From Enterobacteria phage SfV, in the sequence record NC_003444: a stretch of DNA of 37,074 nucleotides; one strand, 5' to 3'. Below the pieces are notes generated by a model, which was not told where the DNA came from, searched no databases, and worked only from the letters and a program-made list of their open reading frames with translations. The position numbers and the translations under genes are program-made. Each line of letters starts with the position of its first letter. Within the stretch, counting starts at the first letter, position 1. Below, one piece after another: positions 24,254 to 28,079 of this stretch.

Positions 24254-24616
24254 TTAATGACCTGCTGCGCGGAGTTTTCCGTCAGGTTCACCGGCAAGAG
24301 TCAGTAATTGTCCCTGGTCTTCCTGCAGAATAGTCAAGCGACCACCGCGATTGACATACATCGGCGTTTCGGTGGTGTCTTCTTCGGAAATTTTCCCGCG
24401 GTTAGTCGGGCGAACATATGAGAGTTTGTGTTTGATTTTCACACGGTTCTCATCAAATGGTTCGATTTCCAGGTTGAGTGAGACCTTACCTTTGGTTTTC
24501 GTGTTCATCACACCGGAAGCGACTTCACTGAGAACTGCGCCGATTTTGGTTTCAAATACGCCGCCGTCCAGCTCCCCGATAAATGCCTGCACATCAGTAC
24601 TGCGTTCGCTAGCCAT
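24254..24616 (-). CDS. YfdP-like hypothetical protein
   Basis: ORF 24254..24934; start placed at ATG 24616 (MASERSTDVQ...) with GAGGAG upstream, giving 120 aa; the N-terminal extension of the track ORF runs into a non-coding-looking region. Confidence 0.55.
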   Translation of the reverse strand: MASERSTDVQAFIGELDGGVFETKIGAVLSEVASGVMNTKTKGKVSLNLEIEPFDENRVKIKHKLSYVRPTNRGKISEEDTTETPMYVNRGGRLTILQEDQGQLLTLAGEPDGKLRAAGH

Positions 24617-24666
24617 TTTGCTGCTCCTCATCATATCGACCCTGCAAGGCCGATTAGTTTCTCCAC

Positions 24667-24798
24667 AAAACAGAGAAGAACACCTGCGGTGGCAGCCGCC
24701 CGGATGGATTGGGTTATGAGCCCGTCGTCCGGTGATGCTCTTCTCTGTTTTGTAAAAAGGACGGTACCAGCCGGAAGCAAGGGTACAAACTGGTACCG
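24667..24798. ncRNA. candidate structured RNA element (function unknown)
   Basis: 12-bp perfect inverted repeat aaaacagagaag/cttctctgtttt (24667-24678 / 24740-24751) enclosing nested GC hairpins; 9-bp stem cggtaccag/ctggtaccg (24762-24770 / 24790-24798) followed on the minus strand by a T5 run; no convincing ORF. Confidence 0.3.
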
Positions 24799-25053
24799 CC
24801 AGGACTACACACAGCATAAAGTTGTGGTGCCGGGTGCCTCCCGGTGCCTGGCGAAGGTTGCACACCAGACGGGTGGGTATCCACAGAAGGTCGACTGTCA
24901 GCCTCAACCTTAACCCGCGTGCGCTGAGCCGCATTCACCACAACGCTAAGGATTCTCTTTGGTTGAAAATACTTAGCTGTTATGTGCCTGTCTTTTCACC
25001 ACTTCAGGCTCGGTGGTATCCTTTTAAGCCCGTATACATAAAAGGAAAATCAA

Positions 25054-25299
25054 ATGACTTTTGATGAAAAAGAACTTGATAATGCAATTAATAAAATCAT
25101 CGTAACGTCGCTCTTTTCCTGTCTCAGCGACACTCAGCAGAAACAGTTCTACGAATCGGCTTTCAACATGATCGAGCGTTGTTGTTTCTGCGATGCCGAC
25201 GAGTTACCTGAAAAAATCAGGAAACAGTTGGCTGATGCTCTTCGAGTGCGACTTTCTGACCAATTTTCTGAAATGTGCTCTCCGAATTTGGACAAATAG
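25054..25299 (+). CDS. hypothetical protein, 81 aa, antisense to the pL transcript
   Basis: ATG 25054 preceded by AAGGA; Cys-containing (CCFCD); 3' end overlaps the convergent ORF by 83 nt. Confidence 0.4.
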   Translation: MTFDEKELDNAINKIIVTSLFSCLSDTQQKQFYESAFNMIERCCFCDADELPEKIRKQLADALRVRLSDQFSEMCSPNLDK

Positions 25300-25492
25300 A
25301 AAAAGGCCATTTCCATTCAGGGTCTGATGGAAAGACTTCAGCCTGTTCCAAAGCACGGCGTAAAGAGAACACAACTCCAGCCATAATCTGATGTTTCCCA
25401 TTGGTCCAGCTATCGCCGCTCTGATCTACAGGGGCGGCTATGTCGTATGACCAAACGACTTCACAGTTATTGTTTAAAATCTGGACTTTCAT
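25217..25492 (-). CDS. hypothetical protein, 91 aa, first ORF downstream of pL
   Basis: ORF 25217..25513; ATG at 25492 (MKVQILNNN...) with AGCAGGTG upstream; not Arg-rich, so not N-like. Confidence 0.45.
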   Translation of the reverse strand: MKVQILNNNCEVVWSYDIAAPVDQSGDSWTNGKHQIMAGVVFSLRRALEQAEVFPSDPEWKWPFSICPNSESTFQKIGQKVALEEHQPTVS

Positions 25493-25612
25493 TTCATACA
25501 CCTGCTTTAACATGAGTACCTAGTGGCACAACATGACTCAACGAATCATCCTGGACTTCATATGCCCCAGGCGGCTACTTCGTGGGCGTCCTGCCTGTTT
25601 GTTGTTTCTCTT

Positions 25613-25646
25613 GGGTACATTATGTATCTCATGGGTACATTGTCAA
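25613..25646 (-). promoter_or_regulatory. pL-like early-left promoter with operator half-sites
   Basis: Minus strand TTGACA (25646-25641), 16-nt spacer, CATAAT (25624-25619); repeated gggtacat motifs (25613-25620, 25633-25640) overlap the promoter. Confidence 0.5.
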
Positions 25647-25685: not shown

Positions 25686-26360
25686 TTAGGCTTTGATTTT
25701 GTATCTTCTTGGTTTTCCTGAGAAAATCACCGTTCCAATTATAGAGCAATTACCGTTGATCTTAATGTAAGGCTCAGGCCAGTTTGGGTTTAACGCTTTG
25801 AGATAACGCTGTGTCCCATCTTCTATCAACCTTTTGAAGGTGGTTTCACCTGTATCGTGCATCAATGCAATAACGTCGTCACCGTGGCAGGCAGGTACTT
25901 CAGGATCGACAAAAATCATGTCTCCCGGGCGGTACTCATCAATCATTGAATCACCTATCACCCGTAAGATATAAGTCATTTCCCCACAGGGTACAGGGCA
26001 GGGATACGTTTCTGCTGTGCTCAAATCAACCTCAGAATATCCAACTTCTTTCCATGCTCCGGCCTGTACCCATGATATGACAGGGACTAATGTGATTTGT
26101 TTATTAGTGATTGAAACATCAGGTTTTTTTGTGATGTTCGTTGTCTGGTGTTCTTGATCGAGCCATCCGACAGGCAGGTCGAAACATTTTTCGATGTGTC
26201 GTGCCATGCTGTCACCGATATTTTTAGTAGCACCATCTCCCATAAACCTGCTGGTCTGGGTTGGCTCGCGATCAATCATGGTGGCAAAGGAAGAATTCCC
26301 GCCAACACCATCTCTCAGTTTTCTGGCGTTAGACCGCCGGATGTCATGGACTGTTTTCAT
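25686..26360 (-). CDS. cI: CI-type repressor (HTH plus S24 LexA-like autopeptidase domain)
   Basis: 224 aa; C-terminal S24 domain with GDSM serine motif and a conserved lysine downstream; divergent from cro across an operator region. Confidence 0.9.
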   Translation of the reverse strand: MKTVHDIRRSNARKLRDGVGGNSSFATMIDREPTQTSRFMGDGATKNIGDSMARHIEKCFDLPVGWLDQEHQTTNITKKPDVSITNKQITLVPVISWVQAGAWKEVGYSEVDLSTAETYPCPVPCGEMTYILRVIGDSMIDEYRPGDMIFVDPEVPACHGDDVIALMHDTGETTFKRLIEDGTQRYLKALNPNWPEPYIKINGNCSIIGTVIFSGKPRRYKIKA

Positions 26361-26682: not shown

Positions 26683-27246
26683 ATGAGGCTAACCGTGGGT
26701 AAGCATCACTGGAAAGTAGAAAAACAGCCTGAGTGGTACGTGAAAGCTGTCAGAAAAACTATCGCGGCGTTGCCGGGGGGTTACGCTGAAGCTGCTGAGT
26801 GGCTGGATGTAACAGAGAACGCTTTATTCAACCGCCTTCGTGCAGATGGCGATCAGATTTTCCCGCTGGGATGGGCAATGATTTTACAGCGCGCGGCTGG
26901 CACTCACTACATTGCGGATGCTGTCGCACAGTCTGCTGGTGGGGTGTTTGTATCGCTTCCTGAAATTGAGGAAGTAGAGAACGCCGATATAAACCAGCGC
27001 CTGCTGGAAGTCATCGAACAGATCGGGAGTTACTCAAAGCAGATTCGTTCGGCAATCGAAGATGGGGTAGTGGAGCCACACGAGCAGACAGCAATTAATG
27101 ATGAGTTGTATCTGTCAATTTCGAAGCTCCAGGAGCATGCAGCACTGGTCTACAAAATCTTTTGCGCTCCAGAAAAGAGTGACGCCCGCGAGTGTGCAGC
27201 TCCGGGCGTCGTGGCGTTTTGTGTCTGTGGAGAAACTAACGCATGA
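26683..27246 (+). CDS. CII-like regulatory protein (phage 186-type CII family, tentative)
   Basis: 187-aa ORF immediately after cro; family assignment from memory only. Confidence 0.5.
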   Translation: MRLTVGKHHWKVEKQPEWYVKAVRKTIAALPGGYAEAAEWLDVTENALFNRLRADGDQIFPLGWAMILQRAAGTHYIADAVAQSAGGVFVSLPEIEEVENADINQRLLEVIEQIGSYSKQIRSAIEDGVVEPHEQTAINDELYLSISKLQEHAALVYKIFCAPEKSDARECAAPGVVAFCVCGETNA

Positions 27247-28079
27247 ACAGTTTAACGGCAAATAACCGTTTGTCGCAACAGCTGGTGGTCAGCGTCGCTG
27301 AACACCTGTTGTTACGGCATGAATGCAGATTACCAAATCACCTGGCTGTAAGTAACCACAGAGAACTTTACCTGACTGTGGGGGGCGAGTTGTGCAGGAA
27401 CTTAACCGCTGGTTTCGTGACGGAAGAGGACTTTATGTTCATGTTATTCGTTGGGAGCCAGAAACACAGCGCGTTATCTATCTTCGCAAAGACTACCCGC
27501 ATGAGTGCTTTAGTCCTTTGTGGAAATTCAGGCGTGATTTTGTTGAGTGTGAAGGACCACCAGCACATTGATTCTGCCATTCCGGGACGTTACACTGTTC
27601 AGGCACCTTATAAAGCGGGTGCCGGGATTGGCGTCCTGGAATTGATCAAGGCGATATATGACGCGCCAGCGTCTTTTTTATCGTCCGCATTTGCTCACAT
27701 CAAAGTTATGGTGGGCTGGGCGGGGGCATCGAAAGATGCGCCGGTTTCCTTGATCACCGGTTACGCCAACCCCGTTCAGTTCACCACCAGCGAAATTGCC
27801 GTTTCCGGTGGTGGAAGTATTTCACCGATCAAGGAGGCTGCCATCATGGCTACTGTCCCAGCCCTCACTCGTCTGAATGATGAAGACTTACATAAACTCA
27901 GTTATGTAACAACTGCACTACGTGCTCTGCGCAAGGTAACTCTTTCGGATCCCCAGGCGCATCAGGTTTTGGTAGAAACCCTTCTTAACTTGCAGGCTGA
28001 ACGTATTCGTCTGGCGGATAAGGCTAATTTTCATATTCACCGTCTCCTGAATATCAGCGGAGGGCATCGTCATGCTTAA
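27243..28079 (+). CDS. hypothetical protein (gene model uncertain)
   Basis: 278-codon ORF with ATGA coupling to the upstream gene; strong internal AAGGAGG-ATG at 27846; alternative-frame GTG ORF 27392..27571. Confidence 0.4.
   Translation: MNSLTANNRLSQQLVVSVAEHLLLRHECRLPNHLAVSNHRELYLTVGGELCRNLTAGFVTEEDFMFMLFVGSQKHSALSIFAKTTRMSALVLCGNSGVILLSVKDHQHIDSAIPGRYTVQAPYKAGAGIGVLELIKAIYDAPASFLSSAFAHIKVMVGWAGASKDAPVSLITGYANPVQFTTSEIAVSGGGSISPIKEAAIMATVPALTRLNDEDLHKLSYVTTALRALRKVTLSDPQAHQVLVETLLNLQAERIRLADKANFHIHRLLNISGGHRHA

Follow-up and report, generated by a model that had tools for sequence, protein, structure and literature searches.

A predicted structured RNA module with an STnc100/PasD-like core and a DicF-like terminator in the early-left operon of phage SfV

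What does the segment between yfdP and the immunity region of Enterobacteria phage SfV encode, if not a protein? In the whole stretch of DNA analysed here (37,074 nt, sequence record NC_003444, "the window"), which belongs to an SfV/ST64B/e14-like lambdoid prophage, this segment spans positions 24617–25053 and is bounded on the right by an open reading frame (ORF) of 81 amino acids (aa). A preliminary description made from the sequence alone had called it ORF-poor, GC-rich and strongly structured, and had offered three roles for it: a phage small RNA (sRNA), an antitermination RNA analogous to put of phage HK022, or a terminator/attenuator in front of yfdPQR. We believe, with a probability of about 0.6, that it is a composite structured non-coding RNA module in the middle of the early-left (pL) operon, read from the minus strand, giving a terminated or processed small RNA and attenuating transcription into yfdPQR. 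As far as sequence can tell, the minus strand here combines a DicF-like terminator with a divergent member of the STnc100/PasD superfamily.

The segment stands apart from its surroundings both in composition and in folding, as the preliminary description had it. The GC content is 0.54–0.57, against 0.40–0.47 in the flanks, and, with fold energies scored against dinucleotide-preserving shuffles, the 437 nt reach −176.5 kcal/mol on the minus strand (z = −5.4, equalled by 0 of 100 shuffles) and −156.5 kcal/mol on the plus strand (z = −3.2), so that of the two strands the minus strand folds better. All the inverted repeats and stems named earlier were recovered, some of them as parts of larger elements: the 12-bp perfect repeat 24667–24678/24740–24751 is the center of two 25-nt arms (24665–24689/24729–24753) that are 84% complementary, and the 9-bp perfect stem 24762–24770/24790–24798 is part of a stem of 11 bp, after which the minus strand reads CUUUUU (24754–24759), with the U5 run already noted. 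Additional stems are found at 24821–24870. Folded alone, the long stem gives −51.2 kcal/mol (z = −7.3) and the terminator region a z of −3.7. ARAGORN finds no genes for tRNA or tmRNA in 24500–25200.

At the heart of the module lies an RNA domain of 124 nt and five helices, the core, running from 24944 to 24821 on the minus strand. In a permissive Rfam scan, STnc100 (RF02076) aligned over its full length from 24966 to 24751 on the minus strand (39.5 bits, E = 7.3e-7); this was the one meaningful match of the covariance-model scan, and it is sub-threshold, while the other Rfam families gave chance-level matches only. Sub-threshold STnc100 matches occupy the same operon position in ST64B, in Salmonella phage 118970_sal3 (sal3), in Cronobacter phage phiES15 and in a Klebsiella phage. 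Our own covariance model, R1, scores the window at 70.8 bits, with the window in its training set, and independent relatives at 54–72 bits; in the rest of the window, the late region included, it detects no further copy of the core. The most conserved part of the family, the 21-mer ACCGGGAGGCACCCGGCACCA at 24825–24845, is present in at least 120 IMG/VR viral contigs, which represent 110 different contexts and fall into 39 clusters at 88% identity, and the canonical copies in viral contigs exceed the Rfam cut-off for STnc100. When species-representative genomes were scanned with the window-type motif of the first hairpin, H1, the core turned up in E. albertii, Pantoea, Mixta, Raoultella, Enterobacter and Escherichia sp.

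The window element shares with STnc100/PasD the closing stem xxUGGUG...CACCAxx, the AAU junction, a 6-bp hairpin with a bulged A, a hairpin loop that forms a pseudoknot, the invariant CACCGGGAGGCACCCGGCACCA, and a linker and intrinsic terminator after the core; both lie in lambdoid prophages, in sense orientation within an operon. It differs in that three H1 pairs are flipped from C-G to G-C, in its score under the Rfam cut-off, in the DicF-like character of its linker and terminator, and in its location, the pL operon upstream of yfdP, where STnc100/PasD are found with Q or stx on one side and the lysis genes on the other. It also lacks a promoter box of its own. Such a box, TTGAn-N16-19-TAnnnT ending exactly 7 nt before UGGUG, precedes 22 of 85 canonical members and 0 of 16 window-type members, and the window element therefore appears to need transcription from upstream.

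Of the canonical members, PasD1 and PasD2 were confirmed as sRNAs in enteropathogenic Escherichia coli by Northern blots, which show that their stability depends on Hfq, and they are expressed in uninduced cultures (PMC8550237). STnc100/EcOnc27 lies just downstream of stx2B, and binding of Hfq has been described for EcOnc27 (PMC12711010, PMC12370729). PasD and STnc100 are connected on structural grounds in a preprint from 2026, which locates both close to Q and the lysis genes (bioRxiv 10.64898/2026.05.13.724894). One of our viral contigs, L015, has two tandem canonical copies (76 and 73 bits) flanked by a QuuD-like Q gene and the holin gene. Some 100 nt before the first of these, still between Q and holin, six tandem copies of AGCTGTCTTG are found (L015 4084–4143). 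Two copies of the core, 400–950 nt apart and each with a promoter-like box and a terminator, are seen in L015, L031, L039 and L119.

The aligned family has a common architecture of P1, AAU junction, H1 with its bulged A and UNNGC loop, variable segment, H4, and H5 abutting P1. In the window, read 5′ to 3′ on the minus strand, the closing stem P1 is formed by GUUGUGGUG (24936–24944) and CACCACAAC (24821–24829), complementary at 9/9 positions. H1 (24916–24933) is a hairpin of 6 bp with the loop UCAGC and the conserved bulged A, as seen from the alignment and the pair counts. The variable segment (24871–24904), whose length and sequence depend on the lineage, holds CCUUCU and a GUGG-AUAC-CCAC hairpin; H4 (24846–24870) pairs GUCUGGUG with CGCCAGGC over 8 bp; and H5 (24830–24844; CCGGG-AGGCA-CCCGG) abuts the 3′ strand of P1. 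The 9-nt loop of H4 carries the 3′ strand of a pseudoknot, CAACCUU (24854–24860), whose partner is AAGGUUG (24905–24911), a pairing apparent both as a repeat and in the covariation of the family. It is absent from the printed Rfam STnc100 structure line and was identified in the present analysis.

These helices are supported by compensatory changes in the alignment of homologues. When 38 sequences were aligned to the covariance model, 97.3% of cells were paired as compared with 84.4% in shuffles, and 11 of the 19 core pairs had changes on both sides, which 0 of 500 shuffles matched; sliding the partner columns collapses the signal. In P1, 6 of 8 pairs are changed on both sides across relatives. 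In H1, three pairs flip between C-G and G-C from canonical to window-type members (17–18 of 37 sequences), with 100% of cells paired and the bulged A kept throughout. H4 is formed as a hairpin in every lineage from differing sequence. H5 and its flanks constitute the invariant 21-mer, and relatives not selected on this 21-mer show that H5/P1 also covary, as CCUGG/CCAGG (Qin-type), UCGGG/CCCGA (Enterobacter) and CGGUG/CACCG. The pseudoknot was scored by the best helix of each sequence, with permutation controls, and column-wise counts for it and for H4 were dropped because the helix register drifts by 1–6 columns between subfamilies in MAFFT alignments. Across the family, 18 sequence classes of the pseudoknot stay complementary, and none of 10,000 permutations scores as high. 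The G-U pairs, found in P1, in H1 (U-G in 36 of 37 sequences), in the pseudoknot and in the long stem, fit the minus strand only; many of these are conserved and would be A-C mismatches on the plus strand, which assigns the RNA to the minus strand.

The core is followed by a single-stranded linker of 20 nt, UUUAUGCUGUGUGUAGUCCU (24801–24820, minus strand), a candidate seed or processing region. The 20-nt linker UGCUGUGUGUAGUC is kept across phages of Escherichia, Salmonella, Citrobacter and Cronobacter, and its center, UGCUGUGUG(U/A)AGUC, is conserved in the window, e14, ST64B, sal3, F1055, phiNP and phiES15, although these phages differ in what surrounds it, with three classes of upstream domain (core) and three kinds of terminator. 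The predicted intrinsic terminator comes next (24754–24800, minus strand), with an 11-bp stem of GGCGGUACCAG and CUGGUACCGUC, a 19-nt loop and then CUUUUU, as given by the repeat and by the fold. A terminator-like hairpin at most 125 nt from the core is the rule in the family (96 of 101 members in viral contigs, with a median distance of about 25 nt). In the window, the 5′ arm of the terminator is DicF-like: UGGCGGUAcCAGUUU compares with UGGCGGUAuCAGUUU of K-12 DicF, and UGGCGGUACCAGUUU matches UGGCGGUAUCAGUUU.

The resemblance to DicF extends to the layout. DicF in the Qin prophage, like the window element, lies inside an operon driven by a promoter opposite the repressor gene, and in both a P1-closed domain, a single-stranded stretch, a terminator starting UGGCGGUAnCAGUUU and protein genes dependent on read-through follow in this order. 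Because structured domain, single-stranded stretch, DicF-like terminator and downstream genes are arranged in this way, we regard the layout in the window as that of the DicF precursor. The domain upstream of DicF corresponds to the precursor of 190 nt that is cut by RNase III and then by RNase E (Ragunathan et al. 2023, PMC10448788). In K-12 this is a second P1-closed domain (L144 ~1407–1545), of a different class from the window core and of the same type as in Salmonella phage F1055, where it holds the position of the window core. The single-stranded seed, through which DicF pairs with ftsZ, xylR and pykA, differs as well, UGCUGUGUGUAGUC in the window versus UUUCUGGUGACGUU in DicF. The window-type core is itself present in Qin, one step further on: in K-12 (L144 1611–1738) it fills the dicF–dicB spacer with a score of 59 bits, and in both E. 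albertii and K-12 Qin it follows the dicF terminator and precedes the start codon of dicB, with P1 extended to 20 bp and without a terminator of its own. A 371-nt query comprising the 3′ end of dicF, the spacer and the start of dicB was matched in 4,643 of 5,426 complete E. coli genomes.

Downstream of the terminator, the long stem (24665–24753, minus strand) pairs ACAAAACAGAGAAGAGCAUCACC with GGUGUUCUUCUCUGUUUUGU over 20–25 bp and closes a three-way junction; it forms a module of the 5′ untranslated region (UTR) of yfdP and is a candidate RNase III-type site. Its fold can reach into the U-run of the terminator. The stem is kept in 6 phages, where one pair has changed in a compensatory way and several G-U pairs are invariant; on the plus strand the latter would become A-C mismatches. 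It also accompanies yfdP in mEp460 and in Stx2c phages, which carry replaced sequence upstream of the terminator. These same phages have a variant class of the core (in mEp460, L003 2697–2831, minus strand), which retains P1, an H1-like hairpin, the boxA-like motif described below, the terminator and the long stem, with the middle of the core replaced, H5 absent and a score of 23 bits. The rest of the yfdP 5′ UTR (24614–24664, minus strand) has the conserved GGAGAAAC at 24657–24664 and a small hairpin at 24635–24654. yfdP itself (24254–24616, minus strand) begins with the ATG at 24614–24616, preceded by the ribosome-binding site (RBS) GAGGAG.

The operon in which the module sits is read leftward. 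A promoter-like site, TTGACA-16-CATAAT, with 11/12 consensus matches, lies outside the segment at 25646 to 25619 on the minus strand, bearing out the earlier view that the segment is in the path of the pL transcript; a leftward transcript of the pL type is thus predicted to cross the whole segment on the minus strand. Just right of the promoter are the terminator of the repressor gene (25674 to 25655, minus strand) and the LexA-family repressor gene (25686–26360, minus strand). The first ORF of the leftward operon, of 98 aa (25217–25513, minus strand), overlaps convergently by 83 nt with the 81-aa ORF (25054–25299, plus strand), which has a good RBS; only the 98-aa ORF is annotated by the Prokaryotic Genome Annotation Pipeline (PGAP), and neither is matched in Pfam. 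In K-12, the unrelated ymfI/ymfJ are arranged like this pair of ORFs. Over roughly its first 60 nt (AACAGGCAGGACGCCCACGAAGUAGCCGCC...GGAUGAUUCG; window ~25530–25600, minus strand), the pL transcript is shared with the leader of ST64B (L004), and a hairpin within this part covaries, CCUGG..CCAGG in the window versus CCGGU..ACCGG in ST64B; this could be a promoter-proximal regulatory RNA, a candidate put forward from its sequence. Directly 5′ of the core, an inverted repeat with 13-nt arms forms a further hairpin (24945–24977, minus strand). The remainder of the span (24978–25053), with weaker hairpins and no defined strand, lies within the leftward transcript upstream of the 81-aa ORF and is partly common to the leaders of F1055 and phiNP.

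On this arrangement we base the following scheme. Polymerase starting from the pL-like promoter would transcribe in turn the first small ORF, the 124-nt core, the 20-nt linker and the DicF-like terminator. Termination would be efficient enough for part of the transcripts to end there, leaving a structured RNA of about 190 nt or more from the 5′ end of the core, which would correspond to the DicF precursor (190 nt) made from the dicBF operon of Qin. Trimming by RNase E or RNase III could reduce this to a small RNA of about 65 nt, composed of linker and terminator, in which the conserved linker would be the pairing region, and which would presumably bind Hfq and act on targets in trans. Other transcripts would read through into yfdPQR and then into xis and int, so that the terminator would attenuate or time delayed-early expression, and the 20–25-bp stem beyond it would be a site for processing or stabilizing the yfdP mRNA. 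For the core itself, the candidate roles are a scaffold for folding or protection and an element acting in cis. In the e14 homologue, ymfJ, ymfH, xisE and intE are co-induced by DNA damage in vivo (PMC11228462), so this locus is transcribed and polymerase passes the terminator. Two of the roles in the preliminary description are taken up in this scheme: that of a phage sRNA, supported in kind by the divergent STnc100/PasD member and its DicF-like terminator, and that of a terminator or attenuator before yfdPQR, supported at the level of sequence by the 11-bp GC-rich stem with its U5 run, downstream of a strong pL-like promoter.

Several observations weigh against it. The STnc100 score falls short of the gathering cut-off of 47 bits, and a scan at the gathering threshold has no STnc100 match. 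For DicF (RF00039), the Rfam model gives 15.7 bits (E = 2.1, from 24813 to 24759), far under the cut-off of 48. The nested fold of the core alone barely beats its shuffles (z = −1.9), the single compensatory pair of the long stem comes from six closely related sequences, and a search for targets of the linker within the window gave nothing beyond chance. The cores of the Qin type, those linked to TerB and those of Pantoea precede an RBS and ORF or hairpins that are not terminators; the genes after such RBS-type cores include dicB, a TerB-domain gene and DUF1317. Since several relatives thus have an RBS and ORF after the core, its conserved function is not simply that of the body of a terminated sRNA. 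Finally, the only small-RNA read found for the K-12 homologue, a 35-mer, has plus-strand sequence and thus runs antisense to linker and terminator arm (PMC4398507).

This last observation is the ground for an alternative in which a plus-strand antisense small RNA is, or is part of, the functional product, with the linker conserved as the target or template of a cis-antisense pair; such a pair could guard the lysogen against leaky pL transcription into yfdP or xis-int. The read in question, GAAAAAACTGGTACCGCCAAGACTACACACAGCAT, was one of the two most abundant e14 small RNAs of K-12 in a ligation-based library (PMC4398507), and it maps to the plus strand over terminator arm and linker (L002 2656–2690, the K-12 e14 sequence, corresponding to window ~24783–24817); the conservation of the linker independently of its neighbors would fit as well. 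A consensus scan found no sigma-70-like promoter nearby, however, and no plus-strand terminator is seen there either; the plus strand is the weaker fold and turns conserved G-U pairs into A-C mismatches, and the orientation of the read comes from that single study, all of which makes this quite unlikely in our view. To a protein-coding gene, real or decayed, we give almost no credence, even though annotation favors one. The stretch of K-12 e14 that is 90.7% identical to the segment is annotated as ymfH (103-aa YmfH; L002 2502–2813), PGAP aligns a frameshifted hypothetical protein to 24631–24941 and marks it as a pseudogene, and the segment has stop-free stretches of 74–108 codons, with the yfdP frame open upstream as a 226-aa ORF (24254–24934). 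The label "ORF-poor" thus does not strictly hold. These stretches are not conserved as reading frames, however: there are indels of 1 nt and 20 nt inside the supposed ORF, and the longest open frames differ among the window, K-12 e14, ST64B and sal3. The "protein" would begin with GTG and run across the covarying RNA domain, the terminator and the 25-bp stem; Pfam has no family for K-12 YmfH or for the ORFs of the window, and in ST64B and phiNP nothing is annotated in the corresponding 800–1000 nt. Homology to a decayed gene, named in the preliminary description as evidence against a structured RNA, is formally present in the ymfH annotation, but the ORF itself fails the coding tests, and by these tests the segment is non-coding. 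Overexpression of a "ymfH" clone has been reported to trigger RcaT, the toxin of retron-Sen2. This phenotype from a retron screen counts in favor of a gene, yet it is equally attributable to the RNA of the clone, and because the ymfH ORF looks non-coding, the active agent may be RNA.

The remaining alternatives concern what the core does to transcription. A factor-dependent, nut-like antitermination or anti-Rho site, in which a boxA-like motif and the core would modify polymerase together with Nus factors and/or a phage protein, would let the pL transcript cross the terminator and long untranslated regions in a phage where no N gene is evident. The core is well placed for this, between the promoter and the first terminator, and its extreme sequence conservation suggests a conserved host partner; the e14 genes past the terminator are induced, and the leader of ST64B is free of ORFs for about 430 nt before the core. 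By inspection, no N-like arginine-rich protein follows pL in the window, ST64B, phiES15 or Qin, and the first ORFs after pL are not arginine-rich in the window, e14, phiES15, the Klebsiella phage and Qin, as judged by eye and not by a sensitive search. The motif itself, UGCUCUUU/UGCUCUUA, occurs at a fixed offset of −10 to −3 from P1 in 10 of 18 relatives (at least 6/8 matches, and 8/8 in three), where 0.004 per sequence would be expected at random. As at lambda nut and the boxA of rrn and CRISPR leaders, relatives thus carry UGCUCUUU or UGCUCUUA a few nt before a hairpin-containing structure in a long untranslated transcript. In e14 and in the window, by contrast, the motif is degenerate; the 8-mer at its position in the latter, AAUCCUUA (24947–24954, minus strand), has 3/8 boxA matches, so that a boxA (CGCUCUUA or UGCUCUUU) upstream of a hairpin is absent there, and, unlike lambda nut, the phage has no evident N gene and a structure far larger than boxB. 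The Qin core, moreover, comes after the DicF terminator. That the core alone is no antiterminator is argued by the promoter box 7 nt upstream of canonical members, by the accumulation of PasD in uninduced cells and by the L015 copies directly upstream of the holin gene: a self-sufficient put-like antiterminator with its own promoter and uninduced expression would be lethal upstream of lysis genes, and is, to judge from these copies, unlikely. HK022 put does resemble the window element in being a structured RNA between an early promoter and the first terminator of a lambdoid phage without N, but it comprises about 70 nt and two stem-loops as against 124 nt, five helices and a pseudoknot, and, unlike put, members of the present family terminate efficiently just downstream in uninduced cells. 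The put analogy of the preliminary description is not borne out by this architecture or by the lack of any copy of the domain in HK022: the motif is absent from the HK022 genome even with 5 mismatches allowed, and model R1 has no match there. With no similarity to put and a degenerate motif, we consider the nut-like site unlikely. Very unlikely, we think, is a riboswitch-like conditional terminator, the core being an aptamer for a metabolite or protein that controls the terminator or RBS behind it. A compact, multi-helix, pseudoknotted domain with invariant junction and loop nucleotides, a terminator about 25 nt on in 96 of 101 members and an RBS instead in other contexts would be in keeping with it. 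No conserved antiterminator pairing was found, however, the sole pairing tested being the local alternative partner of the 5′ strand of the pseudoknot, which is no better than in cross-lineage controls (0.50 versus 0.48), and the downstream genes are unrelated (yfdP, xisE, kil, dicB, TerB, DUF1317, lysis genes), which argues against the logic of one metabolite.

A second structured RNA locus was noted in the window, to the right of the repressor region. Rfam matches above the gathering cut-off were found for isrK (64 bits, 27603–27679, plus strand) and, adjacent to it, for C4 antisense RNA (82 bits, 27704–27791, plus strand), both inside a mechanically called ORF of 278 aa (27243–28079). The pair represents an antirepressor immunity module of the P1/P7/Gifsy type, and the same isrK is present in ST64B.

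A broader reading of the core, to which we hold only tentatively and with low confidence, is that its 110–135 nt are a widespread cis-acting RNA domain of enterobacterial prophages and islands, placed before the terminators or RBSs of delayed, often toxic genes and binding a conserved host or phage factor. The genes concerned could be kil, dicB, the lysis genes, yfdP and xis, and the control could be one of elongation, of processing or of translation; together with the boxA-like motif of its relatives, the core could be the missing N-independent, nut-like device of phages of the SfV/ST64B/e14 type. If the cis-acting reading is true, "ymfH" and the dicF–dicB spacer of K-12 would be unrecognized copies of a regulatory RNA.

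The preferred reading, a structured non-coding module of the pL operon, reassigns a common stretch of E. coli, present in 2,785 of the 5,426 complete genomes (about half), from "hypothetical protein" or pseudogene to structured RNA. It joins three subjects so far treated apart: the sRNAs STnc100/PasD from Stx-type prophages, the precursor of DicF, and the dicF–dicB spacer of Qin, which is not translated. The covarying pseudoknot and the near-invariant loops imply a specific partner for the core, and K-12 offers two genetic test beds for it, e14 and, with Rem induction, Qin. Should that partner act on transcription or processing, it would explain how lambdoid phages lacking N get past their early terminators and how the toxic genes of prophages are held back.

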